In this document: in pieces, positions 3,959 through 25,138 of the stretch
How the letters are laid out: each line of letters starts with the position of its first letter
Position numbering within the stretch: position 1 is the first letter of the stretch
Origin: Thermoanaerobaculales bacterium
GTDB taxonomy: Bacteria; Acidobacteriota; Thermoanaerobaculia; Thermoanaerobaculales; Sulfomarinibacteraceae
NCBI GenBank assembly: GCA_021107705.1
Contig: JAIOSJ010000129.1
Location: 7,754-71,753, forward strand
Direction: 5' to 3'
Length of the DNA: 64,000 bases
Made by a program: the position numbers and the translations under genes
Notes under the pieces: model-generated
Told to the model about the DNA's origin: nothing
Seen by the model: only the letters and a program-made list of their open reading frames with translations
Database searches by the model: none

Positions 3959-4153
3959 AGCACAGTTGGAGGTCGAACCCCGTCCGGCAGGCAGTCGCGG
4001 TTCGACCCGGACCGGCAGTTCCAGCCATGACGGGGTCTCGGCGCCGAACAGCAGGGCGGGCCGCGCAACGATCCGAGCATCCGGCTGATCGAGTTCGGAA
4101 CCGTCGTGGGTGTTATTGACCACATTTGCAACAGTTAAGCTCGGTATTTTTCG

Positions 4154-5725
4154 GTGGTAGAATTACCCGCGATTGCTATGTTGGAGCTTCTCTTCGCCGC
4201 AGGACTTCTAGGGGCCGGTCATCCACCGGCCCCGTGCGACTTGGAGTGTGAGCAGCAGGCGGTGGTACGACTCCTTGATCAGGGAGAGACCCGATCCGCG
4301 GTGGAGCGTTTGAACGATGCCCGGCGTCGTTTTCCCGATGATCGCCGGCTCGTACTGCTGCTCACGCGGTCATACCTTCTGGAGAACAACCTCTTTTGGG
4401 CCGAGCGCACCCTCCGTGAGGCCGTAACGCGGTGGCCGAACGATCCCGAGCTGCGCGCGTGGCTCGCCGCGGTCCATCTGCGCCAGGGAGATCCCGAGCT
4501 GGTGATCGCCGACCTGGATCCGGAGCATGAACCGACCGACGATCCGCATCGGGCACGCTGGCGGCTGCTCGCGGTATCGCGGGCCCGACTGGCCGACGAC
4601 GCCACCGAGGCCGGCACCTTGCTGGCCCAGATCACCGAAGAAGACGTGCTCTACCCCGAGGACCGGCGCCTGTGGGCCTCGCTCAAATCGAGTTCCGACC
4701 CCTGGTGGAGCGAGTCCATCACGGGAACCCTGGAAATCGGAGCAGGCCGAACCTCCAACGCCCTAGCCGGCTCGCCGACCGATCCCGGAATGTCCGGCGG
4801 TCCCAGTGGACTCATACCGCTCAAACTCCGCAGTCGTTTCGCACCACCTACCGGCACATCCCTGAAACCAGCCATTGATCTCGAGGTGCTGGCCACCAGT
4901 CTTCTGGAGGATGCCTACAGCGAGCTGAGTTCACTACAGGGAGGACTTCGACTCGGCGCTATGGTCCTCGACGGTGAGCGCCGTTGGACTTTCGGTTACC
5001 GAGCCGAAGTACTCTGGCTCGACCAGGATTCGCCTTTGTATTCCGAGGCCCATCGTGCCGAGTTCGAGCTCGAGTGGGCCGACGGTCAGGTCGTCTTCCT
5101 GGGGGGAGGGCGTCGAGTGTATAGCGACGAACGGCGCACCCGCTGGGAGGGTGAAATCGGTGTCGGGGGCCCGCTGCGCCTCACTGCCGGAGTGCCACTG
5201 CTGGCTGGCGCCACCCTTCGTCTCGCCAACGCCCAGTCGACGGCCTACGATCAATTCGGCATCTCGGCCGCCGCCTCGGCGACCGTGCCGCTCGGACGTC
5301 GAAGCTCCCTCCGCGTCGCGCTGTCCGGAGTCTGGGATGACTACCCGAACTCGGGCGGAGAAGAAGGTCGCCTTGTTTTCGGTACCGAGGAGAAACGCCG
5401 CGATCTTCTCGGTCGGGTTGGGCTCACCCTCTGGACGCCCGCATGGCGAAACCTACGTCCGGGCTTTGAGGTTCGCTACACGAGACGCGAGTCCACCGCC
5501 GACGAAACTCCCGGGTTCGACTTCAGCTACCGCGAGTGGCGCGCCATTGCCTGGCTGCGATGGACATTCAAAGCAGACCCGTGGGCGCCGCGGACCGTCG
5601 ATGACGATCACGTGCCCTTGGACTGGGGTCTCGAGAGCAGCGGCGGCATGGACCAGGAGCGGATTCTCGACCTGCTGCGGGGCGACGAGGAGCTGCGCCG
5701 CGGTTCGAGCTGCGGGGTTAAATGA
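4154..5725 (+). CDS. Hypothetical envelope protein: N-terminal TPR-like repeats plus C-terminal beta-strand-rich (outer-membrane barrel-like) region
   Basis: 523-aa ORF with a GTG start; ATG 4178 is an alternative. The N-terminal half has TPR-like helices (LNDARRRFPDDRRLVLLLTRSYLLENNLFWAERTLREAV). The C-terminal half has alternating-hydrophobic strands ending ...YREWRAIAWLRWTF, followed by a ~55-aa tail. Its stop overlaps the next start (ATGA). Confidence 0.55.
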   Translation: MVELPAIAMLELLFAAGLLGAGHPPAPCDLECEQQAVVRLLDQGETRSAVERLNDARRRFPDDRRLVLLLTRSYLLENNLFWAERTLREAVTRWPNDPELRAWLAAVHLRQGDPELVIADLDPEHEPTDDPHRARWRLLAVSRARLADDATEAGTLLAQITEEDVLYPEDRRLWASLKSSSDPWWSESITGTLEIGAGRTSNALAGSPTDPGMSGGPSGLIPLKLRSRFAPPTGTSLKPAIDLEVLATSLLEDAYSELSSLQGGLRLGAMVLDGERRWTFGYRAEVLWLDQDSPLYSEAHRAEFELEWADGQVVFLGGGRRVYSDERRTRWEGEIGVGGPLRLTAGVPLLAGATLRLANAQSTAYDQFGISAAASATVPLGRRSSLRVALSGVWDDYPNSGGEEGRLVFGTEEKRRDLLGRVGLTLWTPAWRNLRPGFEVRYTRRESTADETPGFDFSYREWRAIAWLRWTFKADPWAPRTVDDDHVPLDWGLESSGGMDQERILDLLRGDEELRRGSSCGVK

Positions 5726-8704: not shown

Positions 8705-10330
8705 ATGGACGGGTTTGCCGCCCACGATGCTCCCGGATGGGCTGCCCTGGCGGAGGGATTGATCCTCCTCACCACAGCCCTTGGCTTGGGCGCGGCGACC
8801 TCGCGCCTGCGTCTCGGGCCGACCGTCGGCTACATCGCGGCCGGCGCCCTGCTCGGACCGCACGGCCTTCGCCTGCTTGGCGACGCACCCGGTCTGCATT
8901 CGGTCACCGAACTCGGGGTCACGCTGCTCCTGTTCGCCATCGGACTCGAGTTCCCCTGGCGCGTGCTGCGCAGCCTGGGTCGAGGGCCACTCCTTGGCGG
9001 CGGCGGCCAAATCCTCCTCACCGCCCTTGTCGGGTTGGGGATCTCCCGCGCTGTCGGAGCGTCCACCGGCACTGCTCTGGCTGTGGGCGCGGTGCTGGCA
9101 CTGTCGAGCACCGCCTCAGTTCTGCGCACCCTGAGCGGCCGAACCGAAACCGACACCGTGCACGGACGACTGACGGTGTCAGTGCTCATCCTCCAGGACC
9201 TGGCCCTCGTCCCCTTGCTCCTTCTGGTCGCGGCCATGACCCATTCCGGCTCACCGAGCGCGATCACACTGGCGATAGGCTTGTCGATCGGCCTCACACT
9301 GGTCCTCGCCGCAGTCCTGATGATCTTGGCAAAGGTGGTCATGCCTCGGGTGCTCACCGCCACCTCGAGCCTCGCTCACCGGGAACTCGCCATTCTCCTC
9401 GCCCTGGTCACCGCCACCGGCGCCGCCTACTTCGCCCACCGCCTTGGACTGTCGCCCGCGATGGGCAGCTTTCTCGCCGGCATGCTGCTGGCCGACTCCC
9501 CCTTCGCGCTGCAGTTGCGCTCCGACGTCGAGGCACTCAAGGCGATCTTTCTGGCCCTGTTCTTCGTTTCCATCGGTTTCCTGTTCAACGGCGCCTGGGT
9601 GGTGCAGCACCCGGTCCAGGTGGCCCTGGCTACCGCCGGGGTGCTCCTGTTCAAGACCCTGACCGCATCAGCCGCCTTGATCGTTTTTGGTGCACCGCGT
9701 CGGGCTGCGTTCGCGGCAGGGATCTGTCTCGCCCAGATCGGCGAGTTCTCATACGTCCTGGCCCTACAGGCAAGCAGTTTCGGACTCTTCTCCCCCGACA
9801 CCATGGCCCTGATCGTGGCTGCCCTGGTCCTGACCCTGGCCGCCACTCCTCTCCTCGTTGCCTTGGGGGCCCGTGTCTCCCTGCCCACCGCGACCGTCGC
9901 CAGCAGTGACACCGCGCAGAACGCATCGACTCCTCACCGGGTCGTGGTGATCGGCTTCGGCCCAGTTGGTGCAGCCACAGCCGCCGAGGCCCTTCGATCG
10001 GGGCGAGAGATCACGGTCATCGAGCTCAACCCGCGACTTGTCGGCCAGGCCCGCAGCGAGGGATTCGAGGTCCACCTCGGCGACGCCACCCACCCGGAGG
10101 TTCTACGACACGCCCACGTCGGTGATGCGGCCGCGGTGGCAGTGACGGTCCCCGACCACCGTGCCGCCGCCCTTATCATCCAACTGGTCCGCATCCTCGC
10201 CCCCGAGGCGCTGGTGGTCGCCCGGTCCCGTTACCACCTCCATACCACCGGCCTGCACAACGCCGGCGCCGATCACGTGGTGGACGAGGAGCAGGAGGTG
10301 GGGGCGATGCTCGCCCGGCTGGGCCTCTAA
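8705..10330 (+). CDS. CPA2-family monovalent cation:proton antiporter with C-terminal RCK/TrkA-N domain (KefB/KefC-like)
   Basis: 541 aa and multi-TM, with LGPTVGYIAAGALLGPHGL, ELGVTLLLFAIGLEF and ILQDLALVPLL. The C-terminal Rossmann part reads VVVIGFGPVGAATAAEAL...VARSRY. Confidence 0.85.
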   Translation: MDGFAAHDAPGWAALAEGLILLTTALGLGAATSRLRLGPTVGYIAAGALLGPHGLRLLGDAPGLHSVTELGVTLLLFAIGLEFPWRVLRSLGRGPLLGGGGQILLTALVGLGISRAVGASTGTALAVGAVLALSSTASVLRTLSGRTETDTVHGRLTVSVLILQDLALVPLLLLVAAMTHSGSPSAITLAIGLSIGLTLVLAAVLMILAKVVMPRVLTATSSLAHRELAILLALVTATGAAYFAHRLGLSPAMGSFLAGMLLADSPFALQLRSDVEALKAIFLALFFVSIGFLFNGAWVVQHPVQVALATAGVLLFKTLTASAALIVFGAPRRAAFAAGICLAQIGEFSYVLALQASSFGLFSPDTMALIVAALVLTLAATPLLVALGARVSLPTATVASSDTAQNASTPHRVVVIGFGPVGAATAAEALRSGREITVIELNPRLVGQARSEGFEVHLGDATHPEVLRHAHVGDAAAVAVTVPDHRAAALIIQLVRILAPEALVVARSRYHLHTTGLHNAGADHVVDEEQEVGAMLARLGL

Positions 10331-10409: not shown

Positions 10410-11954
10410 TCATTGGCCGAGAAAAAGCCCGGCGCCGGGTCCGAGCGGAATTCCCAGCAACAACCAGATCACAAGGAGCAACATCCAGGCCAGCATGAAT
10501 GTCACCGAGTACGGCAGCATGGTGGCAATGACGGTTCCCATGCCCGCCTTCGGGTCGTAGCGCTGCATGAAGGCCACGATCAGAGCGAAGAAGGACATCA
10601 TCGGCGAGATGATATTGGTCGAGCTGTCACCGATTCGGTAGACACCCTGGATCAGCTCTGGGCTGTAGCCGAGCAGCATGAACATCGGAATGAACACCGG
10701 CGCCATAAATGCCCACTTCGCGGAGGCGCTGCCCATACAGAGGTTGAGGCCGGCGGCGAGAAGCAGGAAAGAAAGCATCAACGGGATCGGTCCAAGACCA
10801 GAGGCCTTGAGGACTTCTGCCCCCTTGATGGCGAAGATCATGCCGAGGTTGGTGTACTTGAAGTAGGCCACAAACTGGGCAGCGAAGAACACGAGCACCA
10901 TGAACAGGGCGAGGGTCTCCATCGACTCCTTCATGCCTGTGACGACGTCTGAATCGTTCTTCATCGTACCGGCGGCCAAGCCGTAGGCAAGACCGGTAAG
11001 CAGGCCACCAAGGAAGATGATGGTGACAATTCCGTGCATGAATGGCGAGTGAAGCACACTGCCGGTTTCGAGATGGCGCAGGAATCCATCGTCCGGTATC
11101 AGGCCGACCAGAAAGATGACTGACATACCGAGACTGACGATGAAGGCCCAGAGGAGACCACGTTTTTCCTCGTTCGACAGCTTGTGAAATTCCTCGTCCT
11201 CGGTCACGACCGCGCCTTCGAAGGCGCCGAGTCGGGGAACGACGATCTTTTCTGTGACCCAGGTGCCGACCGCCGCTATCACAAAGGTTGAGACCACCAT
11301 GAAGTAGTAGTTGCAGGCCGGTGTCACCGTGTATTGGGGATCGATGATGCGGGCAGCTTCCTGGCTGATTCCCGCCAGGAGAGGGTCGATTGTACCGAGC
11401 AGGAGGTTGGCGCTGAACCCTCCGGAGACGCCGGCGAAGGCCGCCGCGAGTCCGGCGATGGGGTGGCGGCCGACCGACATGAAGATGATCGCGCCGAGGG
11501 GCACGAGCAGAACGTATCCGACGTCGCTGGCCATGTTGGAGAGCACACCGGCAAGCACGATCACGAAGGTCAAGAGGCGGCGGGGTGCGGCGTGCACGAG
11601 CAACCTCAGACACGAACCGATCAGACCGCTCTTTTCGGCGACACCGATTCCCAGCATCGCGACGAGGACGGTGCCGAGTGGCGCGAAACCAGTGAAGTTC
11701 TCGATCGTCGATTCCAAAATCCAGTGCAGACCTTCACGTGAAATCAGGTTGATCGGCAGAACTTCGACTCCCGTTTTGGGGTTGACGGCCGAAAGCCCCA
11801 GTTTGGCTGCGAGCCATGAAGCGAGAATGAGTGTGAAGGCAAACAGTGCAAACAACGTGGCGGGGTGTGGCAGGGTGTTGCCTATCTTCTCGATCGCGGA
11901 AAGAAACCGAGAGATGATCGAACCCCGTGGAGCGCGGGTGGCAGCTTTTGTCAT
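10410..11954 (-). CDS. abgT: AbgT-family transporter (p-aminobenzoyl-glutamate / antimetabolite efflux family)
   Basis: The 514-aa ORF has [46 protein letters not shown] and [25 protein letters not shown]. These are characteristic AbgT/MtrF sequences. Confidence 0.88.
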
Positions 11955-12013: not shown

Positions 12014-12050
12014 CGCGCCGCAGCTGATCATTGGTGAAAAATGCGGGTTA
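12014..12050. mobile_element. MITE copy b: solo right end (truncated copy)
   Basis: CCGCAGCTGATCATTGGTGAAAAATGCGGGT-TA matches the right sub-terminal block and TIR of copies c, d and e. I found no convincing left TIR. The terminal T plus TA forms the TAA stop (12048-12050) of the adjacent minus-strand gene. Confidence 0.5.
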
Positions 12051-13418
12051 GCGTCCCAGCAAAAAGACGGCGTCTCCGGTGATGCCATCGACGCGGCTTG
12101 CGTACACCAGCACGTTCCGATCCAGGAAGCTTCCTCCTTCAGACGTAGCCAATGCCGATACCCTCAAGACTATTTGCTCATGATCCGCAATCTCGGGAAT
12201 GAGCGTTTCAATTCTGTTGACCTGGTGGAATCCGAAAGGAGGCACTGTGACCGTCCCGCTACCAAAAATAGTCGATCCGGTCGGTGACCACGCCCTGATG
12301 GTAACCTCGACCTCTGATGGTCCGAGATTTGCGATGCCCAGGTTGGTTCTGTTATTGGCGTCGGTCGCCACCAGGTGAAGCGTTCTTTGCCAGGAGTCCC
12401 AGACCCGCACGACATCATCCCGAAGCATCCGGTCTTCCTCCACCAGGGGAACAGTTTGGCCGAAGACGCCCTCCCCTCCAACGTTAGCGACGCGTGCGGT
12501 GACCGCTGCCTTCGGGGCCGTGGTTAATACCTCAAGCCACCCCTTTGTCTCGTGGATCCCGAAAAGCTCGGGGAGCACATCGTCGTAACGCACACTCTGA
12601 CTGCGATCTAGGTCGAGTCGCCGGACGGTGAAGTTCACCGAACCGTCGTGCCCACTCTCGGTGAAATAGAGCCAGATGGTGGTCGGTTCATCCTGGGAGG
12701 CCGTGACCTCGAGTTCGGTGACCCAGCGGGTTTCGGCATCACCGGCCAAAGAGGCCACCACTGGGATGCACCGCTTGATGTGGCGTTTGACGGGGCGCTG
12801 GTCGATGGGGTCCGGGATGTCCGCATCCACTTCGAGCCGGACATCCCGAATGTAGAAGAAGTCCTCCCGGTCGTCTCCGTCGTTGGCCTCGGTAAGCTGG
12901 GCGCGGATCACTACCCGGCCCTGGTCGCTGCTGTACTGGCCTGACGGGATATTCGGGGCGATCTGGGAGGTCAGATCGGCCGACAGCTCCGAGCCCCTTT
13001 CGATGGATCCGTCCATCGCGGTCTCTTGATTGAGGTCTTCCGTGGCCCAGCCGCCATGAGGATCTACCGACGGGCACCCCATGAGGCCGATCACCCTTCC
13101 CGCCACAACCGGTCCGAGCGCGCTGGGGTCGGCGTAGACAGTATCGATGCCAATACGGAGGACCGCCGACGTGATTTGAGATCCCGGCGGAAGGAACGAC
13201 AGATCGAAGCCGAAGACGGCCACGACATATTGGTTTTGCGTGGAGTCGCCGATAAACGGCACAACGCCCTCGAAGCGCGGAACGCCGTCTTCCGTCACGC
13301 GGATGTGGCCGATTTGACTTGGAGTTACCCGGAACGATTCCGCCCCGGCGGTTTGGCTCCCGATCAGGAAAGCGAGGGCGAGACCTAACAAACAGGTGGT
13401 GACAGGCCGGAATTGCAT
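12048..13418 (-). CDS. Secreted hypothetical protein; its C-terminal ~230 aa are paralogous to the C-terminus of ORF 38403..40673
   Basis: 456 aa with a signal peptide (LLGLALAFLIGSQTAGA). The C-terminal region starts CIPVVASLAGDAETRWVTELEVT and ends ...YASRVDGITGDAVFLLGR. Compare FWIPVASHAPGAQGSAWRTDLGLL ... YGSVVDNITNDPTTMAVVR in the other protein. Confidence 0.6.
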   Translation of the reverse strand: MQFRPVTTCLLGLALAFLIGSQTAGAESFRVTPSQIGHIRVTEDGVPRFEGVVPFIGDSTQNQYVVAVFGFDLSFLPPGSQITSAVLRIGIDTVYADPSALGPVVAGRVIGLMGCPSVDPHGGWATEDLNQETAMDGSIERGSELSADLTSQIAPNIPSGQYSSDQGRVVIRAQLTEANDGDDREDFFYIRDVRLEVDADIPDPIDQRPVKRHIKRCIPVVASLAGDAETRWVTELEVTASQDEPTTIWLYFTESGHDGSVNFTVRRLDLDRSQSVRYDDVLPELFGIHETKGWLEVLTTAPKAAVTARVANVGGEGVFGQTVPLVEEDRMLRDDVVRVWDSWQRTLHLVATDANNRTNLGIANLGPSEVEVTIRAWSPTGSTIFGSGTVTVPPFGFHQVNRIETLIPEIADHEQIVLRVSALATSEGGSFLDRNVLVYASRVDGITGDAVFLLGR

Positions 13419-13599
13419 GGTTCAATTCTCCTTTCTCAAAACTATTCTGCTGCCCACAGTCTGAGCTGTCCATGGCCGGAAGCGACAAAAACATGTCCGA
13501 AGGCGACAAACCGCTCTGTCGACTGCCGATGCTCGGCCTACGCCGGTAGATTTCTGGACCGGTTTGCGACACGGTCCAGGCTCCTGTAGCGTATTGCTG

Positions 13600-15813
13600 A
13601 TGGTTTTCGACACCTCAGCAGAGGTTCCCGTTCAGAAATTCGGGACGTTCCTGGGGGTTTTCACTCCCAGTATCCTGACCATCCTCGGGCTGATCATGTA
13701 CCTGAGGTTCGGCTGGGTCGTCGGCAACATCGGCCTTGGCCTGACAATCCTGCTGGTCCTGCTGGCCAGTTCCATAACGTTCATCACTGCATTCAGCGCC
13801 TCCGCCGTAGCAACCAACATGCGGGTTGGCGTCGGTGGCGAATATTTCATGATCTCGCGCAGCCTTGGACTCGAGCTGGGTGGCGCGATCGGCATTCCCC
13901 TGTTCTTGTGCCGGACCCTGAGCATCACGTTCTACAGTTTTGGTTTGGTGGAGTCGATCCTCGCCTTCTGGCCGGCGACGTGGGGAGAGATGCCGGCCTA
14001 CACCGGGCAGCTCGGCGCGGCGATCATCATCATCGCCATCACCACGGTGTCCGGCAAGAGCGCGGCCCTGGCCTTGAAGTTGCAGATCCCGATCATGATG
14101 GCCGTGGGCGCCTCTCTGATCGCCTTGGTCATTGGCGCGATCATCGGCGGCCTACAGGCGCCCGAGCTGAGCCCGACCTACCGCACCGCTCCGCAGGGAT
14201 TCTGGTATGTGTTCGCGGTCTTTTTCCCGGCAGTGACCGGGTTCACGGCGGGCATCGGTATGAGCGGCGATCTCAAGGATCCGCGCCGGTCGATCCCTCG
14301 CGGAACCCTGCTCGCGGTAATAACCGGCACGGTGATCTACCTGTTCATTCCGATCATCCTGAGCCTCACCGCGAAGGTCACACCGGAAGAATTGGCCGCA
14401 CCCGGGATCATCTGGACAAAGATCGCCGTGCTCGGCGGGTGGCTGGTTTTCCCTGGGCTGTGGGGCGCCATCCTGTCGTCCGCGTTCGGCAGTATGCTCG
14501 GCGCGCCGCGAGTACTCCAAGCGCTGGCCGACGACGGGCTGGCGCCCGGCTTCCTGGCCCGGCTCTCCCCTTCTGGTCAACCGACCATCGCCACCTGGAT
14601 CAGCGGCGCCATCGCCCTTGGCGCAGTCGTGCTCGGTGGGCTTAATGCAGTGGCCCAATTCGTCACCATCCTGTTTCTGACCCTTTACGTCACCGTCAAT
14701 ATCAGCGCGGCGATCGAGAAGCTGGTCGGCGACCCCAGCTACCGACCGACCATCAACGTGCCGTGGTATGTCTCGCTGCTCGGCTCGGTCGGCGCGGTGG
14801 TGATGATGTTCCTGATCAACCCCTACGCCTGTATGACGGCGATTTTTCTCGAAGCCGCGCTGTACCTCTATCTCAGGCGGCGGGCCCTTCGCCAGCAGTG
14901 GGGCGACGTATGGGCCGGTCTGTGGATGGCGGTGGCACGTTTTGCCCTGCTCAACCTTCGGACCCAATCGAGAAATCCCCGAAACTGGCGACCCCACATC
15001 TTGCTGTTTGCCGGTGACCCGGTTAAACGCCTCAACCTGGTTCGGCTGGCGGCCTGGTTCAACCAGAACCGCGGGGTGGTCACCGTGTGCCAGCTGGTGG
15101 TTGGCGACCTCAAGGACAAGCACCACGACGCCGAGCTCCGGCGCCAGGAGATGGAACGCGACCTCGAAGATGCCGGACTGGTCGCCTTTGCCGACGTCGA
15201 TGTTGTCGAGTCCTTCGAGAGCGGAGTGATCAACGTGACCCAGGCCAACGGTATTGCCGGGCTGCGGTCGAACACCGTCATGTTCGGCTGGCCGCGGCGG
15301 CTGGAACGGCTGGAAAGCCAACTGAAGATCATGCGCGGGGTGTCGAATGCCGGCAAGAGCACGGTGATCGCCAGAGTCAACTGGGCTCACGAGCCCGGCC
15401 GGGAGAAACGCATCGATCTGTGGTGGGGCGGTCGGCAGCACAACGGCGACCTGATGTTGCTGTTCGCCTACCTCTTGAGCCTCAACCCGGAGTGGCGCGA
15501 CGCCAGAATCGTGATTCGGGCCATCGCCCGTAGCGAGGATGAGCGCAAGGAACAGGAAGCGGGCCTCAAGGCGCTGCTTCCGGAAATCCGGATCAACGCC
15601 GAAACGCAGATCATCGTCAAACCGCCTGACCAGACCTTGGCCGAGGTGATCCAACACACCAGCCGGGGGGCAGCGGTGGTGTTCTTCGGCTTGATGGAAC
15701 CGGAACCCGGGACCGAGGCGGAGTATGCCCGACGGCTCACCGCCCTGGTTGAGCCGCTGAACACCACGATCTTCGTGCGCAACGCCGGCGAGTTCGCCGG
15801 CCGTCTGATCTAG
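13600..15813 (+). CDS. Cation-chloride cotransporter-like APC-superfamily transporter (SLC12/CCC-like) with a large cytoplasmic C-terminal domain
   Basis: ATG 13600 lies in frame within track ORF 13564..15813. The protein reads KFGTFLGVFTPSILTILGLIMYLRFGWVVGNIGL, GGEYFMISRSLGLELGGAIGIPLF, 12 TM, then a ~290-aa soluble tail. This is a typical bacterial CCC layout. Confidence 0.78.
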   Translation: MVFDTSAEVPVQKFGTFLGVFTPSILTILGLIMYLRFGWVVGNIGLGLTILLVLLASSITFITAFSASAVATNMRVGVGGEYFMISRSLGLELGGAIGIPLFLCRTLSITFYSFGLVESILAFWPATWGEMPAYTGQLGAAIIIIAITTVSGKSAALALKLQIPIMMAVGASLIALVIGAIIGGLQAPELSPTYRTAPQGFWYVFAVFFPAVTGFTAGIGMSGDLKDPRRSIPRGTLLAVITGTVIYLFIPIILSLTAKVTPEELAAPGIIWTKIAVLGGWLVFPGLWGAILSSAFGSMLGAPRVLQALADDGLAPGFLARLSPSGQPTIATWISGAIALGAVVLGGLNAVAQFVTILFLTLYVTVNISAAIEKLVGDPSYRPTINVPWYVSLLGSVGAVVMMFLINPYACMTAIFLEAALYLYLRRRALRQQWGDVWAGLWMAVARFALLNLRTQSRNPRNWRPHILLFAGDPVKRLNLVRLAAWFNQNRGVVTVCQLVVGDLKDKHHDAELRRQEMERDLEDAGLVAFADVDVVESFESGVINVTQANGIAGLRSNTVMFGWPRRLERLESQLKIMRGVSNAGKSTVIARVNWAHEPGREKRIDLWWGGRQHNGDLMLLFAYLLSLNPEWRDARIVIRAIARSEDERKEQEAGLKALLPEIRINAETQIIVKPPDQTLAEVIQHTSRGAAVVFFGLMEPEPGTEAEYARRLTALVEPLNTTIFVRNAGEFAGRLI

Positions 15814-15820
15814 AATCACC

Positions 15821-16495
15821 GTGCAACCACGCCGCATCATTGAATCCGTCACCACCAGCGAAGGCACCGAGCTGGTCCTCATCGAGCGCGGGGGAACCTT
15901 CCTGCTCGAGGTCGACGGTGAAGCCCTGATGTCGAATCTCACCTACGACTCGGAGGAGGCCCTGGCTCAGGTTGTAATCTCCCGTCTCCAGCCGACCGCG
16001 ACGCCGCGCCTGCTCATCGGCGGTCTCGGTATGGGCTTCACCCTGCGAGCCGCCCTCGACGCCCTGGCTCCACGTCCCCGGGCGACCATCGAGATCGTGG
16101 AGGTTTTTGATGCCGTGGTCCGATGGAACCGGGGAGTGCTTGCCCATCTCGCGGGGAACCCCCTGGCCGATCCCAGGGTCAGAGTGAGGATCGGCGATGT
16201 GGCGCGCACGATTGAGGGCTCTCGAAACCGTTACGACGCGATCCTGCTCGACATCGACAACGGTCCGGAGGCCCTTACTCTCGCCTCCAATCACCAACTC
16301 TACAACCCGAAGGGCCTACAGGGTCTCAAAGAAGCGCTGACACCGGACGGCGTCCTCGGCCTCTGGTCGGCATCAGACGATCGAGTTTTTCGGCGAGCCA
16401 TGGGACACGCAGGATTCAAGCTTGAGGTCGTCCGGGTGCGGGCTCGCTCGATGGGCCGGGGACGGCGCCACGTATTATTCCTCGGACGGAGATGA
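15821..16495 (+). CDS. Spermidine synthase-like (aminopropyltransferase-fold) SAM-dependent enzyme, copy 1
   Basis: 224 aa reading LVLIERGGTFLLEVDGEALMSN...PRLLIGGLGMGFTLRAALD...YDAILLDIDNGP...LTPDGVLGLW. It is a clear paralog of ORF 20570..21235 and starts 8 nt after the transporter stop. Confidence 0.7.
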   Translation: MQPRRIIESVTTSEGTELVLIERGGTFLLEVDGEALMSNLTYDSEEALAQVVISRLQPTATPRLLIGGLGMGFTLRAALDALAPRPRATIEIVEVFDAVVRWNRGVLAHLAGNPLADPRVRVRIGDVARTIEGSRNRYDAILLDIDNGPEALTLASNHQLYNPKGLQGLKEALTPDGVLGLWSASDDRVFRRAMGHAGFKLEVVRVRARSMGRGRRHVLFLGRR

Positions 16496-16601
16496 AGTCG
16501 AACCTCCCCCATTTGACAACACCGTTGTTACCGATTCGAATCAGGAACACGCCTCGCCGGAGAGTGGGATACAATCTGCCCATCCGAAAAGGAGTTGCTC
16601 C

Positions 16602-17906
16602 ATGAACGAAAAACACCGGGAATACGCACAGATCGTCGATCAGGTTCTTGACCCAACGGGCCAGCGGACCTCCAAGCTGTGTGTCAGTCCCTTTTCTTAC
16701 GACCGCTCACTGCGCAACGAGATGGAGGAGCTGACCGGGGCCTACGCAAGACTTCTCGAGTTCGTCTTCCGGAGCTTCCCGACCTCCGCCAGGATCCAGG
16801 AGGTGCTGGAGTACCCCGCGGAGCTGGAGTCCTTCCTCGGCGCCCTCAACATCTACCCGAAAAACCTCGCCGCGGCGCGCATCGACGTGTTTCTCACCAG
16901 CGAGGGCTTCCGCATGGTGGAGTCGAACACCGAGATTCCGGGCGGCAATGAGGAGAGCTACTTCCTCGAGAACGAGTATCTCAGAATCTACCGACCGGAG
17001 GGTCTGAGCGCAGTACCGCGCATGGAGATTGTCTTCGACACCCTGATGTCCCACTATCGCACTCAGGCCGAGTTCTTCAACCTGCCACAGAAAGACAGCC
17101 TGGTCATCTACCTCTGCCAGTGGCAGTCGGAGATCGAACGCATCCGCGGCGAGTACGACGTGCTGATCAACTTCATCCGCGAATGCGGCCATGTCGCCGA
17201 CGTGGTGGACCCCAACCGGATCAAGATCTCGGACGGCAAGGCCTTCGCCCCGGACGGCCAAAGGATCGACCTGATCTACCGTCGCTTCACCTCCGATGAG
17301 CTGCCGCGGTTCGCCCAGCGCAAGTGGCAGATGGCGATCGACTGGGACCACGCCGCAGTTGCCGTGGTCAACCCCTTCTGCACAAAGCGGGTGGACTCCA
17401 AGAACATCATGGTTCTGTTCAAGGATGAATCGTACGAGGAGGTCTTCCCCGCAGACCTCAGGGAGGACCTGGAAACGGTTCGGCGGATCATCCCGTGGAC
17501 CAAGAAGGTCAAGGACCGACTGGTGCTCAAGGACGGCCGCGAAGTGGACGCCGGGCCCTTCCTGGTAGCGGAGAAGGACAGTCTGGTCATCAAGCACGCC
17601 AACGCCTACTCCTCCTCTGCAGTCTTCATCGGCGAGGACATCTCGGTGCCCGAATGGCGGGACATCGTCGATGAGTCCCTCAAGGGCGACTGGGTCGTCC
17701 AGGAGAAAATCGAGCTACCGGAGATGGATATGGAGTACTGGGAGGACGAGCAGCTCAAGACCGCCCGCTGCATCTACAACGTCAACCCCTACATCTACGA
17801 CGGTCGCTTCGGCGGCTTCCTCAACCGCGCCTCCACCGACAAGCTGACCTCGTTTACAAAGGGCGAGATCGCCGCCGTCGTTCCGTGCTTCGAAAGGAAC
17901 TCGTGA
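16602..17906 (+). CDS. Glutathionylspermidine-synthetase-like ATP-grasp amide ligase (GSP_synth / circularly permuted ATP-grasp family)
   Basis: ATG 16602 has AAAGGAG 7 nt upstream and lies in frame inside track ORF 16422..17906. Motifs match E. coli YgiC/Gss synthetase by eye: ARIDVFLTSEGFRMVESNTEIPGGNEES (R-x-D...E-x-N-x-x-x-P), NPFCTKRVDSKNIMVLF, LVIKHANAYSSSAVFIG, NVNPYIYDGRFGGFLNRAS. Confidence 0.7.
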   Translation: MNEKHREYAQIVDQVLDPTGQRTSKLCVSPFSYDRSLRNEMEELTGAYARLLEFVFRSFPTSARIQEVLEYPAELESFLGALNIYPKNLAAARIDVFLTSEGFRMVESNTEIPGGNEESYFLENEYLRIYRPEGLSAVPRMEIVFDTLMSHYRTQAEFFNLPQKDSLVIYLCQWQSEIERIRGEYDVLINFIRECGHVADVVDPNRIKISDGKAFAPDGQRIDLIYRRFTSDELPRFAQRKWQMAIDWDHAAVAVVNPFCTKRVDSKNIMVLFKDESYEEVFPADLREDLETVRRIIPWTKKVKDRLVLKDGREVDAGPFLVAEKDSLVIKHANAYSSSAVFIGEDISVPEWRDIVDESLKGDWVVQEKIELPEMDMEYWEDEQLKTARCIYNVNPYIYDGRFGGFLNRASTDKLTSFTKGEIAAVVPCFERNS

Positions 17907-18722
17907 ATGGGCGCGCCGATCCTCGTCTCGGTGCCCCACGGGGGATGGAGTGTGCCCGATGAGCTCGCCGACATCTGGGCCCTCTCCGCCAAGGACGCCT
18001 TCCACGACGGCGATCCACTGACCTCCCGCATCTACGACTTCTCCGACCGGGTGAGCGTGGAACTCGTGATGGAGCACTACCGCGCGGTCGTCGATCTCAA
18101 TCGCGCCCCCGACGACATCGCGCCCAAGAACCCGGACGGCGTCATCAAATCCCACACCTGCTTCAACGTGGAGGTCTACAAGCCCGGCTGCTTGCCCGAC
18201 GAAGCCCTCAAACAGGAGCTCCTGGAGAGGTACTACTTCCCATACCACAGGGCCCTTGCCGAGGCAATCGCCCGCGACGACGTGCTCATGGGCGTCGACT
18301 GCCACAGCATGGTCGCCGTGTCACCTCCGATCGAGGCCGACGCCGGCACGGCCCGACCCCTGCTATGCCTTGGCAACCTGGGCGACGCCGACGGAGAGAT
18401 CTGCGAGCCGTTCAACCGAATCACCTGCCCACCGGAGATGATCCGCTTCGTGGCTGAAGAGTTCACACGAGTCTTCGAGCACGAGGACGTGGAGATTGAG
18501 GTACCGGGAGTAGCGACGGCCAACGTACCGTTCTCCGGCGGATACATCACCCGCACCGTCGGGGGCGGCGAGACGCCCTTCTTCCAGATCGAGATGAGCC
18601 GTGCACTCTACCTGACCAAGCGGTTCTTCGACGAGGAACACCTCGAAGTGGACGAACGACGGATCAATGATCTCAGAACCAAAGTGTGGGGTGTGTTGGA
18701 GCGAACGGTTCGGAATCTGTGA
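17907..18722 (+). CDS. N-formylglutamate amidohydrolase (FGase) family hydrolase
   Basis: 271 aa reading ILVSVPHGGWSVPDE, VVDLNR, GVDCHSM, VPFSGGYITR, FQIEMSRALY. This is the FGase-family motif order. The ATG directly abuts the TGA of the ATP-grasp gene. Confidence 0.8.
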   Translation: MGAPILVSVPHGGWSVPDELADIWALSAKDAFHDGDPLTSRIYDFSDRVSVELVMEHYRAVVDLNRAPDDIAPKNPDGVIKSHTCFNVEVYKPGCLPDEALKQELLERYYFPYHRALAEAIARDDVLMGVDCHSMVAVSPPIEADAGTARPLLCLGNLGDADGEICEPFNRITCPPEMIRFVAEEFTRVFEHEDVEIEVPGVATANVPFSGGYITRTVGGGETPFFQIEMSRALYLTKRFFDEEHLEVDERRINDLRTKVWGVLERTVRNL

Positions 18723-18801
18723 CCTATTGGATGCGCCACGCCCAGCAGTGTTTTCACGGCTCGGGTCGCTGTTACACTCTCGTCCGGAGGAAGTCTTGAG
18801 A

Positions 18802-20526
18802 ATGCATTTTCTTCGCTGTGTCATCTCGTGTCTCGCGATCGTCGGAGTTGTGGTCCCCCCTGCCTTCGCACTTGACGCCGAAAAGGAAAATCCTGCTTGG
18901 GTCGGCGGCCTGAGCCCAGTTGAAGACAGCGGCGTCACATCTGTCAATATCGATGTCTTCGTCCGCCGAAAGGACGATAGTCCGGTGGTCGGACTGACGC
19001 GCGATCAGTTCCGGGTCTTCCAGGACAACGTGGAAATACCGATCACAAGTTTCTCCGCCTTCACCCAGGAATCCCTCGTCCGCAAAAGGCCTCACCCCGA
19101 ACTCGACGAAACCACCATAAATACCGCCGAGGAGACGGCCACACACGCGGAGGAAGCAAATCCGATCTACATCGTCTTGTACATCGACAACGCCAATCTC
19201 CGCCGCATGGACCGCAACCGGGTTCTACGCCCAATGGAGCGCTTTTCCGAGTCTGTGCTCGCGGGACCTGTGCATATCATGGTCGTCAGCCACGATCAGT
19301 CCGTCAATATCGTGCAACCGTTCACCGACGTTCCCCGGGAAGTCGTCCATGCCCTGAGATATTTGCGCACCACCGAAACCCTGCTCGAAGATTACGAGCG
19401 CGAGCATTCGGATATCCAGCGTGCAATCAGACGCTCCATCAAAAACAGAAACAAGACCAGCGGTGCGCGCAATCAGGTCGTGTCGGAACTCTTCGACAAG
19501 ATCCGCCTCTTTGCGGACCAGGAAGAGGCCCGCCTTGCGCAGAACCTTCAGGCGATCCACGAAATCGGTACGACGTTAACGGGAATCAACGGTCGTAAGT
19601 ACCTGGTGTATGTCTCGAATGGTTTACCGTTGGTCGTCAGCAAGGATCTCCTTCACGAATTCTCCGGCCTCGACGCACGGATGTCCTCGGTTTCCTTGTC
19701 CATTCCTTTCAACAAAAGACGGTACTACGATTCCCTGGCCGCAACGGCCAACGCCCAAGAGATCACCATTCACGCCATTGACGCCACGGGTCCCTTCTCC
19801 ATATCCGCGAGTATCGGTGATTCCGAGTCGCCGAAGAGTACCCAGGCGGCGACTGTCGCCCACGAGAACCACCTGGTGCCGTTGCGAGGATTGACGAAAA
19901 AGACCGGCGGCCTGGCGGTGATCAACGAGGATGATTTCGACGCCGGCTTCAATCGCATCAAGGCCGACCTCATGACCTATTACTCGATCGGCTACGACAT
20001 CGAAACATCCGGCAAGGACAAAGTTCACAGCATCGATGTCACGCTTGACGACGATGCTGGACACGAACTCCGTTTTCGCCGCGCTTTCATCGAGAAATCC
20101 CTGAAGTCCAAAATCCAGGAAAGGGTCAACGCGAGTCTTTTCTTCGCTATCGACGACAACCCAATGGGCCTCGTGGTCACGCCCGGCGCTCAGAAGCCGG
20201 CGACCACGGATCGGTGGATGAAGCCCTTTACGATCTCGATCCCGATACATTCGCTCGCCCTGGTTGCCGACGGCGACGACTATGTCGGCAAGGCCATCGT
20301 TTTCGTTGCGACCCGGGATTTTGAAGGCAGGAGTACCGACATCCAACGCCGCAACCATGAGTTCACAGTGCCGGTGAGCGACTATGAGAAACGACGGGAC
20401 GAACATTTCTTCGTCGATCTCAATCTCCTGCTCAAAAAGGGTCGCCATCAGATGGTCGTCGGAGTCTTCGACGAGACGACCCGAAGAGCCTCATACCAGA
20501 AGATGGAAGCGACCATCTATGACTGA
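18802..20526 (+). CDS. Secreted VWA-domain protein of the Acidobacteria-type VWFA-related family
   Basis: ATG 18802 lies in frame in track ORF 18667..20526 and gives the signal peptide MHFLRCVISCLAIVGVVVPPAFA. The protein reads FRVFQDNVEIPITSF, IYIVLYIDNANL, KYLVYVSNGLP, IHAIDATG and LMTYYSIGY. This resembles the TIGR03436-type architecture from memory. Confidence 0.65.
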   Translation: MHFLRCVISCLAIVGVVVPPAFALDAEKENPAWVGGLSPVEDSGVTSVNIDVFVRRKDDSPVVGLTRDQFRVFQDNVEIPITSFSAFTQESLVRKRPHPELDETTINTAEETATHAEEANPIYIVLYIDNANLRRMDRNRVLRPMERFSESVLAGPVHIMVVSHDQSVNIVQPFTDVPREVVHALRYLRTTETLLEDYEREHSDIQRAIRRSIKNRNKTSGARNQVVSELFDKIRLFADQEEARLAQNLQAIHEIGTTLTGINGRKYLVYVSNGLPLVVSKDLLHEFSGLDARMSSVSLSIPFNKRRYYDSLAATANAQEITIHAIDATGPFSISASIGDSESPKSTQAATVAHENHLVPLRGLTKKTGGLAVINEDDFDAGFNRIKADLMTYYSIGYDIETSGKDKVHSIDVTLDDDAGHELRFRRAFIEKSLKSKIQERVNASLFFAIDDNPMGLVVTPGAQKPATTDRWMKPFTISIPIHSLALVADGDDYVGKAIVFVATRDFEGRSTDIQRRNHEFTVPVSDYEKRRDEHFFVDLNLLLKKGRHQMVVGVFDETTRRASYQKMEATIYD

Positions 20527-20569
20527 TTCGGTGGTTCATTTTTCTCCGAGAAGGAGCAAAAATGGGCCA

Positions 20570-21235
20570 ATGAAAGACCATTGGCGGACCATCGACGACG
20601 AAGAGGTGGACGAGGGCACCATGCTGCTGATGCAGCGGGGTGAGAGCGATTTCGTGATCATGGTGGACCACCTCACCCTGATGACCTCAGAGTCCAACCT
20701 CAGCGAATTGGAACTTGGACGAGTTCCCTGTATGCGGCTTGAAAATCGAACGGACCCCCGGGTGCTGTTGGCCGGCCTGGGAATGGGCTACACCCTACGG
20801 GCCGCACTGGACGTCCTACCCTCCACCGCCCGGGTGGAGGTGGCCGAGATCAACACGGTGATCGCCTACTGGTGCCGTGGCCCGATGGCCATTCTCACCG
20901 ACTACGCGCTGGACGACTCGCGGGTGGATCTCTACTTCGAGGATGTCGCAAAGAGGATTCGCCTCGCCGCCGACGGCTCGGAGAGCTACGACGCCATCAT
21001 CCTTGATCTCTACCAGGGAACCTTCGAAGCCAACGATGACCCCGACCACCCGCACTACGGCCGCGCGGCCCTGGAGAGGACCCGCCGGGCTCTCACCCCG
21101 CGTGGGATCCTCGCGGTATGGACTGAGGAGACCGATCCGGGGTTCGAGGGGAGGCTGCGAGCGGTCGGCTTCGACTTCGAAACGCTCCGACCCGATCTCG
21201 AGGGGCCACAGCACGTGGTCTACCTGGCCTGGTAG
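20570..21235 (+). CDS. Spermidine synthase-like (aminopropyltransferase-fold) SAM-dependent enzyme, copy 2
   Basis: It reads MKDHWRTIDDEEVDEGTMLLMQRGESDFVIMVDHLTLMTS...PRVLLAGLGMGYTLRAALD...YDAIILDLYQG...LTPRGILAVW and aligns with copy 1 along its whole length. The start is uncertain: ATG 20519, overlapping the VWA stop, is also in frame. Confidence 0.7.
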   Translation: MKDHWRTIDDEEVDEGTMLLMQRGESDFVIMVDHLTLMTSESNLSELELGRVPCMRLENRTDPRVLLAGLGMGYTLRAALDVLPSTARVEVAEINTVIAYWCRGPMAILTDYALDDSRVDLYFEDVAKRIRLAADGSESYDAIILDLYQGTFEANDDPDHPHYGRAALERTRRALTPRGILAVWTEETDPGFEGRLRAVGFDFETLRPDLEGPQHVVYLAW

Positions 21236-21244
21236 CAGAAGCTG

Positions 21245-22381
21245 TCAGCGACGCAGGAGGGCCAGGGCTTCGACCTGTCGGGTCTGAGGCATCATGTCGA
21301 CGGCCTGAACCGTGACCAGCTCGAAACCGCCGTCGATGAGCATTGCGAGGTCTCGCGTGAGCGTGGCGGGGTCGCACGAGAGGTAGGCCAGGAGCCGTGC
21401 CGGTGAAGCGATAATCATCTCAAGGGCGAGAGGATCGGCGCCGACCCGCGAGGGGTTGAGGACAATGGCCTCGGGCTTCTCCGAACGCAGGCGCCGCAGC
21501 GCTCGGTGGATCGGACTGGCGAGGACCTCGACATTGTCCACCTGGGCCGCCTTGATTGTCGCTCGGGCGTCCGCCACCGAGCTCCTGACCCCTTCCACGC
21601 AGAGGACGCGACCAAAACGCCGTCGAAGGGCGAGACCGTGAGTCCCAACACCGGCATAGAGATCGACCAGGAGCTTGCCCGCGCCGAGGAACGCCGCCAT
21701 CCGCGAATGAACCTCAGGCAGAAGACCGAGGTTGACCTGGAAGAAGGATCCCGGGGAGACCCGCAGCGACAGACTGGCCGAGTCCACATAGACCTCGCGG
21801 ACGCCGAAGACCGGTTCGATGCGTCCCTTGATGACCTGGGCGCCGCCTCCGGGGTTGAGGTTGACGGCGATGCCGGCCACATGGGGGCAGGCCTCGACAA
21901 GAGCCTCGATGGGAAGGCGCGGCAGAGTCTCGTCCCTGACCACCAGCGTCAGGTGCTGGAGATTCGGGTCGCTGCCGCAACGCAGATCAATGTAACGCAG
22001 GGCGAAGGGGATTCGGATGGATGAGTTGAGCAGGCGTCGAATGCCGTGGGTAGTTTCGAGCAACTCCGGGACGAGGACACCGCAGTGTGGCGCATCGACG
22101 ACTTCCCGAGTCTGCCGTTGAAAGTAACCGAGCATGGATCGACGTTCTCTATCGGTGGATATCGCCATCTTGGCCCGGCTCCGATAGCCTTCAACCTGAG
22201 GTGACGGCAGAGTCGGCAGGATCTGGCGGGGCCGGTAACGCACCTTCTCCTCGAGCACATCCATGAGCCGGCGCCGCTTGCGCTCAAGCTGCACCCCATA
22301 GGGTTGGCACAACAAGGAGCAGGCGCCGCACTCTACGCGGTGGGGACAATCGACTATTCGGTCTGCTACGGCTGTCATCAT
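21245..22381 (-). CDS. RumA/RlmD-TrmA family (uracil-C5) RNA methyltransferase with N-terminal Fe-S Cys cluster
   Basis: Start taken at the MMTAVADR ATG (22381) inside track ORF 21245..22441. The protein reads CPHRVECGACSLL, GSFFQVN, LVDLYAGVGTHGL, VLNPSRVGA, YLSCDPATLTRDL and QAVDMMPQTRQVE. Confidence 0.8.
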   Translation of the reverse strand: MMTAVADRIVDCPHRVECGACSLLCQPYGVQLERKRRRLMDVLEEKVRYRPRQILPTLPSPQVEGYRSRAKMAISTDRERRSMLGYFQRQTREVVDAPHCGVLVPELLETTHGIRRLLNSSIRIPFALRYIDLRCGSDPNLQHLTLVVRDETLPRLPIEALVEACPHVAGIAVNLNPGGGAQVIKGRIEPVFGVREVYVDSASLSLRVSPGSFFQVNLGLLPEVHSRMAAFLGAGKLLVDLYAGVGTHGLALRRRFGRVLCVEGVRSSVADARATIKAAQVDNVEVLASPIHRALRRLRSEKPEAIVLNPSRVGADPLALEMIIASPARLLAYLSCDPATLTRDLAMLIDGGFELVTVQAVDMMPQTRQVEALALLRR

Positions 22382-22635
22382 CGTCGTCCAGCGTAACCTA
22401 TTCCGTGTCCCCGCGCTGCCATTCACCGGGTTCAGGTACACTGGCTACTCGCCCGCTGTGGTCGGTCTGGTTCAAAATTCCAGATCGTCCGCATCGACCT
22501 TTTCATCGAGATAGACGCAACAGGGCCCATCTGTCAGCCGCAGTAAACGACCATCCCCACGGATCCAGACGCCGAACCGAACCGCGCGGATTCGGGGACA
22601 GTCGTCCTGCCGGTGGCCCGGGAGGTGACTCAGAG

Positions 22636-22848
22636 ATGGCACGAAACTCCGGAGCATACAAGTTCGAGAAGCGACGTAAAGAACTGGAAAAAAAGAAGAA
22701 AAAAGAACAGAAGAGGTTGGCGAGACAGGCTCGCAAGGAAGGTGATGAGGGCGCCGACGAACAGGCTGAGGGCGCCGACGAACAGGCTGAGGGCGCCGAC
22801 GAACAGGCTGAGGGCGCCGACGAGGGCGTCACAGACAGCGAAGACTGA
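22636..22848 (+). CDS. Small (70-aa) Lys/Glu-rich protein with an acidic tandem-repeat tail
   Basis: GGAGGTG lies 8 nt before ATG 22636. The protein is MARNSGAYKFEKRRKELEKKKKKEQKRLARQARKEGDEGADEQAEGADEQAEGADEQAEGADEGVTDSED. I recognise no family. Confidence 0.5.
   Translation: MARNSGAYKFEKRRKELEKKKKKEQKRLARQARKEGDEGADEQAEGADEQAEGADEQAEGADEGVTDSED
22747..22824 (+). repeat. Perfect 21-bp tandem repeat, 3 full copies plus a partial one (GAGGGCGCCGACGAACAGGCT)
   Basis: Read directly at 22747-22767, 22768-22788 and 22789-22809, then 15 nt of a fourth copy. It encodes (EGADEQA)x3 in the small ORF. Confidence 0.9.
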
Positions 22849-23077: not shown

Positions 23078-24400
<1,323 letters not shown>

Positions 24401-24636
24401 GAACACAATTCTTTCTCGAGATGCACCAATCCCAAGGCGGGGATGCACCGCGTACAATTCCGGCTGGATTGGGAACGGGAGACTTGCCGGGGAGGCTGCC
24501 GTCCGGGTCCGAACGGACCCTGCGGGTTGTGGCCTCTGCAGCCCAACACAGTGATCCAGCTTGCAGAAGCTGCGACAGCCTCTCATGTGTTCCGACGAAA
24601 GGCAAGCATTATCTTTGTGGAAAAGGGGACAAAGGG

Positions 24637-24663
24637 TTGACATCGGGTGATTTGTGGTATATT
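24637..24663 (+). promoter_or_regulatory. Sigma70-like promoter for the RRM-protein gene (TTGACA, 15-nt spacer, TGgTATATT extended -10)
   Basis: TTGACA at 24637-24642 and TATATT at 24658-24663, preceded by TGG. This would give a ~115-nt 5' UTR containing the palindrome ATTGGCCAAT (24676-24685). Confidence 0.5.
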
Positions 24664-24784
24664 TCGTGCTCTATGATTGGCCAATGTGGTTGATCTCCGT
24701 GTCGGTGGGCAGGCGGCCCACCCCAATTTGACTACAGGAGCCGACCTCTCGGAGGCAGCGGTTCCGGGAGACGAGAAGAGAGAT

Positions 24785-25138
<354 letters not shown>

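Follow-up and report, generated by a model that had tools for sequence, protein, structure and literature searches.

What holds together the five co-directional genes that follow an SLC12/APC-type transporter in this 64-kb stretch of a Thermoanaerobaculales genome (Acidobacteriota), the whole of which we call the window? The run encodes, in order, a SpeE-like protein (A), an ATP-grasp ligase, a hydrolase of the N-formylglutamate amidohydrolase (FGase) family, a VWA-domain protein and a second SpeE-like protein (B). The original prediction took them for a single system, in which the SpeE-like enzymes would supply a polyamine that the ligase conjugates and the hydrolase sets free again. Genes were assigned from a table of open reading frames (ORFs) together with Pfam and NCBIfam scans; the five genes and the preceding transporter are all on the plus strand where they had been placed, and their broad identities hold. 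We found that the conserved, presumably functional unit is the ligase-FGase pair, a two-gene cassette of about 2.2 kb (16548-18723, +), and that the five-gene run is peculiar to this genome, since no relative carries the five genes together. We lean, with some reserve, towards reading this mobile cassette as a make-and-break pair for a small amide, possibly of the N-acyl-glutamate type.

Gene order around the ligase

The ligase (434 aa; 16602-17906, +), predicted to be a circularly permuted ATP-grasp carboxylate-amine ligase, starts at an ATG at 16602 with AAAGGAG upstream; its homologues are also 434 aa long and align from residue 1. The FGase-family hydrolase (271 aa; 17907-18722, +) matches Pfam PF05013 at 3e-41, with 142 bits against a cut-off of 28.9. 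As originally predicted, its ATG directly abuts the TGA of the ligase (...TCG TGA ATG GGC), and judging from this junction the two genes are probably translationally coupled.

From GTDB genomes and metagenome contigs we gathered 36 loci that encode a ligase relative, searched them by tblastn with the six window proteins, and counted adjacency in the 27 non-redundant loci with sequence 3′ of the ligase. In 23 of these 27, the gene directly 3′ of the ligase is that of the FGase, at gaps of -4 to +89 nucleotides, bar one locus with a frameshifted ligase. By contrast, tblastn detected homologues of SpeE-like A and B, the VWA protein and the SLC12 transporter in none of the 36 cassette loci, not even in those whose ligases are 92% (L036), 84% (L034) and 78% (L035) identical to the window copy. 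Seen from the transporter, the result was the same: none of 52 metagenome loci with transporter relatives (52-89% identity) carries the other genes. Lack of five-gene synteny in relatives was the very observation that the original prediction had named as speaking against a five-gene unit, and it is what these loci show.

The boundaries of the cassette are visible in the DNA itself. Blastn aligned L036 at 90% identity over 16548-18723 and nowhere else, from 54 nucleotides 5′ of the ligase ATG to the FGase stop, with non-homologous flanks; L034, L035 and L009 aligned at 77-80% over about 16589-18724. An imperfect palindrome (TGTTACCGATTCGAATCAGGAACA, 16526-16549), which lies within the 106-nucleotide gap 5′ of the ligase, sits exactly on the upstream edge of the homology with L036 and might represent an operator or the scar of a junction. 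Rfam searches recovered neither riboswitches nor other RNAs from 13000-22500 at E<=1, and at gathering thresholds they were empty for the whole window; a scan for promoters and terminators did no better than on shuffled sequence.

The two SpeE-like proteins are paralogues, as had been claimed (36% identity, E=4e-36). SpeE-like A (15821-16495, +) matches Pfam Spermine_synth (31 bits, cut-off 22.9; 2e-7) and also Methyltransf_30, and SpeE-like B (20570-21235, +) has no Pfam match and only weak matches to the NCBIfam speE models. Their assignment as aminopropyltransferases stands as far as the fold is concerned: the AlphaFold2 (AF2) model of A, with a predicted local distance difference test score (pLDDT) of 90.1, shows the spermidine-synthase architecture in full, with its N-terminal beta domain, and the top 50 Foldseek matches are all spermidine synthases or polyamine aminopropyltransferases, at template-modelling (TM) scores of 0.68-0.77. 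The assignment fails at the residue that matters for the substrate. In SpeE, the Asp of the GGGDG motif contacts the aminopropyl amine of decarboxylated S-adenosylmethionine (dcSAM) and excludes S-adenosylmethionine itself; in A, B and 22 homologues (an alignment of 24 sequences) the conserved motif at this place is GGLGMG, and Met71 aligns with the Asp of Bacillus subtilis SpeE. Moreover, the Q/DE/YHE region of SpeE is replaced by LMSS...SEE..LA, the family motif DVDNGP is degenerate in B (DLYQGT), and the NCBIfam SpeE equivalogs score 28-34 bits against cut-offs of 250-472. The family is large (more than 7000 homologues of about 225 aa), and on two large contigs that we examined its members stand alone in unrelated contexts. 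The source label "spermidine synthase" is common in the family, and the residues do not support it.

Could the five genes, possibly with the SLC12 transporter, nevertheless form one system, with the SpeE-like enzymes as the source of a polyamine, the ligase joining it to an acid or thiol, the FGase undoing that step and the VWA protein in an accessory role? The genes are co-directional and closely spaced, with gaps of 7, 106, 0, 79 and 43 nucleotides from the transporter through SpeE-like B. The first of these, between the transporter stop (TAG, 15811-15813) and the GTG start of A at 15821, had been given as 8 nucleotides; the close spacing was correct and the figure was not. Furthermore, the SpeE-like proteins have a spermidine-synthase fold, the spermidine-using enzymes Gss, YgiC and YjfC are structurally related to the ligase, and in L004/L015 and L025 large proteins with a Spermine_synth domain are encoded within 1-6 kb of it. 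All of this has to be set against the empty counts in both sets of loci, the DNA homology that stops at the cassette edges, and a SpeE-like family that can stand alone and lacks the GGGDG Asp (in B the DVDNGP motif as well). The system is largely refuted by synteny, and we regard it as highly improbable. The supply of a polyamine by the SpeE-like genes likewise finds no support, since these genes are absent from the cassette loci and the Asp is missing; together with the VWA protein and the transporter they are bystanders of the cassette.

All-against-all clustering of the ORFs gave no third recurring gene, and neither did Pfam when run on the 92 genes closest by. The Spermine_synth domains mentioned above belong to MFS+Spermine_synth+TPR fusions (L004 1-1691, L015 1141-4569, L025 2619-5084) in two lineages; apart from these, no SpeE-type domain recurs near the cassette, and this recurrence is probably due to chance. 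CHAT/TPR and toxin-antitoxin genes near some copies prompted us to consider a role in defence or as a toxin-antitoxin system, which we dropped because these neighbours do not recur; PADLOC returned no defence-system match for the ligase or the FGase. A link to diaminopimelate and lysine (DHDPS in L014, a DapL-like aminotransferase in L004/L015) and another to trehalose synthase (L021/L022) were each confined to one lineage and were treated as chance.

The window holds an AbgT-family transporter gene (10410-11954, -) some 4.6 kb upstream of the cassette. In L035, a 74%-identical AbgT fragment (L035 2-301) precedes the cassette by about 6 kb, and the intervening genes differ. The AbgT family is that of the p-aminobenzoyl-glutamate transporters, which is why this recurrence may be a weak functional hint; it may as well be remnant synteny.

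The cassette is spread over at least 8 phyla. Its carriers are labelled Bacteroidota, Gemmatimonadota, Deltaproteobacteria, Holophagae, Aminicenantes, Chlorobiota, KSB1, Calditrichaceae, Thermodesulfobacteriota and Myxococcales, in addition to a metagenome-assembled genome (MAG) labelled Actinomycetota, and many seem to come from marine sediments, judged by isolate names only. Proteins of the main clade share 58-92% identity with the window copy, and those of a sister clade described below 47%; the neighbour-joining tree of the ligase interleaves the phyla, and the genes that flank the cassette differ everywhere. We found no terminal direct or inverted repeats bounding the cassette, no integrase or transposase with the window copy, and no homologue in the phage collection. 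This pattern fits horizontal spread as a self-contained unit. In this genome the cassette lies between a SpeE-fold gene and the VWA gene.

The ligase fold and its relatives

The ligase is 100% identical to the hypothetical protein K8R59_04605 of a Thermoanaerobaculales MAG (Acidobacteriota). Its sequence has no match in Pfam, NCBIfam or the PDB (in Pfam not even at E<=10), and its close homologues, about 140 proteins all near 434 aa, are nearly all unnamed. A PDB search with the profile of this close family also returned nothing. PDB entries came within reach only after distant relatives had been added to the profile, which then matched 3n6x (2.6e-15), Cp1B (1.5e-11), Gss (4.5e-10), YgiC (1.7e-7) and eukaryotic-type glutathione synthetases (GS; about 1e-5).

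The structural prediction points to the same enzymes. The AF2 model, built on 36 homologues, has a pLDDT of 90.3 and a predicted TM score of 0.89, and its top Foldseek matches in the PDB are eukaryotic-type glutathione and homoglutathione synthetases (E 3e-18 to 1e-16, TM 0.66-0.74), followed by 3n6x, YgiC, Cp1B, YjfC and Escherichia coli Gss, all at probability 1.00. The description of the ligase as glutathionylspermidine-synthetase-like was therefore right about clade and fold, as seen in Foldseek and with the broadened profile, and went too far as a family assignment: the ligase stays below the gathering thresholds of both GSP_synth (PF03738) and CP_ATPgrasp_2 (PF14403), and representatives of the subfamily reach 24-26 bits against the 32 of PF14403. 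An exhaustive profile search brought 2372 relatives, among which only about six clusters at 50% identity score above 250 bits; the remainder are proteins of about 450 aa with roughly 170 bits or less, near the thresholds of CP_ATPgrasp_2, GSP_synth and CP_ATPgrasp_1. On the evidence of the model, the ligase is a member of the circularly permuted ATP-grasp clade that includes Gss, in a family that has no curated model.

In an alignment of 50 sequences (the family and 40 distant relatives), E107, N109, K267, K331 and Q367 are invariant and R93, D95, R409 and S411 nearly so. By analogy with human GS, E107-x-N109, K331 and R409 would correspond to the Mg2+ and ATP ligands of the clade.

Gss (PDB 2io7), a known member of this clade, also combines a ligase with an amidase. 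It shares the permuted ATP-grasp fold (Foldseek E about 1e-13, TM 0.5-0.6), but it unites the two activities in one protein of 619 aa, aligned with ours over residues 251-413 in its C-terminal part, whereas here a ligase-only protein of 434 aa stands beside a separate FGase. The amidase of Gss is an N-terminal CHAP-type cysteine amidase.

YgiC and YjfC (7uk8, 7uk6) and the fungal Cp1B of the E-64 pathway (9cjn) are related to the ligase in structure and in profile searches, but they are found in other gene contexts, have no FGase partner and share only about 13% identity with it. Each is a stand-alone ATP-grasp enzyme that forms amides between a small acid or peptide and an amine or amino acid; Cp1B joins epoxysuccinate to an amino acid (PMC12568646). 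Relatives of the ligase at 22-25% identity occur on plasmids of Sinorhizobium and Bacillus thuringiensis, where they have no FGase partner and sit in small-molecule clusters beside other amide-forming enzymes and efflux pumps. Taken together, the plasmid contexts and Cp1B place the ligase clade in small-molecule amide synthesis.

A sister family of about 450 aa is homologous to the ligase from end to end (25% identity; hhalign probability 100%, E=9e-63) and carries source names such as "circularly permuted type 2 ATP-grasp" and "glutathionylspermidine synthase family". The family adjoins the gamma-glutamyl ligase GCS2 in a bacterial and an archaeal locus (L091 5001-7705; L092 3658-7071; L093 1583-4996); the archaeal locus, present on two assemblies, has the order GCS2, sister-family ligase, TatD/Amidohydro_2 hydrolase. 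In two proteins of 844 and 874 aa (P0240, P0251) it is fused to GCS2. Adjacency and fusion of this kind make these nearest relatives look like second-step small-peptide ligases, which fits a glutathione-synthetase-like role. Our ligase shares with this CP_ATPgrasp_2/GCS2-linked group its full-length homology and, in 3n6x, its best PDB profile match, but it is paired with an FGase or, as described below, with an M20 peptidase instead of GCS2.

These relatives raise the question of whether the ligase itself performs a GS-like step, turning a dipeptide made by a ligase encoded elsewhere into a gamma-glutamyl tripeptide or thiol, which the FGase would degrade or recycle. Eukaryotic-type glutathione and homoglutathione synthetases (2hgs, 1m0w, 3kal, 5oes) are its best whole-chain structural matches, with the E-x-N and the Lys and Arg positions kept, and the tie of the sister family to GCS2 points in the same direction. 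However, sequence identity to these synthetases is 13-16%, neither Pfam GSH_synth_ATP nor GSH_synthase matches the ligase, and the Gly-rich loop that eukaryotic-type GS and the sister family have in common is replaced (KHANAYSS versus KP..YGGKGV). Furthermore, a tblastn search of the window and of about 8 kb around each cassette turned up no homologue of GCS2; GshA-type ligases were outside this search. We consider a GS-like step improbable.

Partner hydrolases and the proposed amide bond

The catalytic motifs of the FGase are intact: PHGG, DLNR, HSM and QIE align with those of the N-formylglutamate amidohydrolase 2q7s. Characterised FGase activity converts N-formyl-L-glutamate to glutamate. 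The window protein shares PF05013 and these motifs with HutG (2q7s), but it is paired with a ligase and does not qualify as the HutG equivalog, since its 76 bits stay below the TIGR02017 cut-off of 279; the annotated neighbours in the cassette loci showed no hut genes.

In the clade at 47% ligase identity (L001 and L027, two of the 27 loci), an M20 peptidase replaces the FGase as the next gene. This CPG2-like enzyme is 60% conserved between the two loci, and its best NCBIfam match is a "glutamate carboxypeptidase" subfamily (3e-72, below the cut-off). A fragment of an IS200-like Y1 transposase (L001 7410-7739) lies immediately upstream of one M20-partnered ligase.

The finding of two amidohydrolase families in one slot argues that the coupling of ligase and hydrolase is functional. 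Both the FGase and the CPG2-like M20 families hold enzymes that release L-glutamate from N-acyl-glutamates, and since the partner is always one or the other where a hydrolase was recognised, the amide might be of the N-acyl-alpha-amino-acid type and possibly an N-acyl- or peptidyl-glutamate. By analogy with its structural relatives (eukaryotic-type GS, Gss, YgiC/YjfC and Cp1B), the ligase would be expected to take a small metabolite or short peptide, convert its carboxylate to an acyl-phosphate and couple this to an amine. The FGase, a metallo-amidohydrolase by family, would most likely cleave the same kind of amide bond, so that synthesis and turnover would be encoded side by side. The idea of a make-and-break pair built from a ligase and a non-orthologous amidase, put forward in the original prediction, thus survives in its core: the coupling is seen in 23 loci with the FGase and two with the M20 enzyme, and the reversal is plausible. 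A survey of amidoligases from 2009 reportedly noted pairings of ATP-grasp and FGase genes; our full-text literature search for this pairing found nothing.

Adjacency and translational coupling would be equally expected if the two enzymes acted one after the other, as enzymes of a pathway are commonly co-transcribed. In such a sequential salvage or processing route, the FGase would deacylate or deformylate a precursor and so free an amino acid or amine that the ligase joins to a carboxylate, or would trim the product of the ligase to maturity, and the order of genes in the archaeal locus of the sister family does look pathway-like. What speaks against it is that release of glutamate from N-acyl-glutamates, the reaction of characterised FGase and CPG2-like M20 enzymes, is the reverse of an ATP-grasp condensation onto the amine of an amino acid, and that the cassette has no conserved neighbour, such as a transporter, that might supply a precursor. 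We regard a sequential route as rather unlikely, though the most serious of the alternatives.

The structural relatives also bring to mind reversible tagging, in which an amino acid would be added to the C-terminus or a side chain of a protein or peptide, in the manner of RimK or tubulin-tyrosine-ligase-type enzymes and their carboxypeptidases, and removed again by the FGase. Circularly permuted ATP-grasp proteins have reportedly been proposed as peptide taggers, and the FGase shares a Zn-hydrolase fold superfamily with carboxypeptidases. The cassette has no conserved gene for a target or precursor peptide beside it, and the closest sequence relatives of the ligase pair with small-molecule ligases, which tells against tagging even though YgiC and YjfC ligate spermidine to peptides (reference cited in PMC12568646). 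Tagging seems to us distinctly improbable.

Some observations weigh against the make-and-break pair that we prefer. Two of the 27 loci (L014 and L017) have a ligase without a recognised hydrolase downstream. A ligase beside a hydrolase could equally belong to a sequential pathway as to a reversal. The suggestion of glutamate is drawn from the family names and the characterised members of the hydrolases, and both hydrolases score below the equivalog or subfamily cut-offs. With its Gly-rich loop replaced, the ligase could also have a chemistry that differs from that of its relatives. Finally, all carriers are MAGs, single-amplified genomes or metagenome contigs, so that the phylum labels and the case for transfer depend on binning.

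As to L017, its ligase (3053-4351) is a second copy, at 58% identity, in a Deltaproteobacteria MAG that also holds a complete ligase-FGase pair (L015 8001-10118).

Bystander genes and the meaning of the cassette

Downstream of the cassette, the VWA-domain protein (18802-20526, +) is confirmed as a member of its family by TIGR03436 (2e-44, 152 bits against a cut-off of 81), a family that NCBIfam labels acidobacterial. Its likely start is the ATG at 18802, with GGAGG upstream. The signal peptide of the original prediction corresponds to a hydrophobic N-terminus (MHFLRCVISCLAIVGVVVPPAFA), from which the protein is probably secreted. Upstream, the SLC12/APC-type transporter (13564-15813, +) matches AA_permease (7e-43) and the SLC12 C-terminal domain (2e-15), as well as TIGR00930 (9e-122, below the cut-off). 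A Kef-type cation antiporter (Na_H_Exchanger+TrkA_N, 8705-10330) lies near it, so that genes for ion transport are clustered locally upstream of the cassette. An ORF of 456 aa (12048-13418, -) has an N-terminal hydrophobic segment and no Pfam or NCBIfam match.

Further downstream, a small Lys/Glu-rich ORF with no family match (22405-22848) contains a perfect 21-nucleotide tandem repeat (3.7 copies, 22746-22823) that encodes ADEQAEG repeats. It is followed by a DEAD-box helicase gene (23078-24643, -), divergent from the gene of an RRM_1 RNA-binding protein (24677-25138) whose Gly/Arg-rich tail is encoded by a 33-nucleotide repeat (25038-25127).

Altogether, nothing supports a five-gene system for a polyamine conjugate, and with this a false lead is removed. 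What takes its place is a compact, self-contained pair of 2.2 kb, in which both enzymes are soluble and the ligase belongs to a family with neither a Pfam or NCBIfam model nor a characterised member, carried by uncultured bacteria of many phyla. Beyond the cassette itself, the sister family that is linked or fused to GCS2 may represent an unrecognised route to glutathione-like (gamma-glutamyl) peptides in bacteria and archaea. For the cassette, we tentatively suggest that it might make and turn over an undescribed small amide, for example a compatible solute that is dipeptide-like and contains glutamate, or else a storage compound or cofactor. In that case a new family of ATP-grasp ligases, each with its dedicated FGase, would have spread horizontally among uncultured bacteria of at least 8 phyla.

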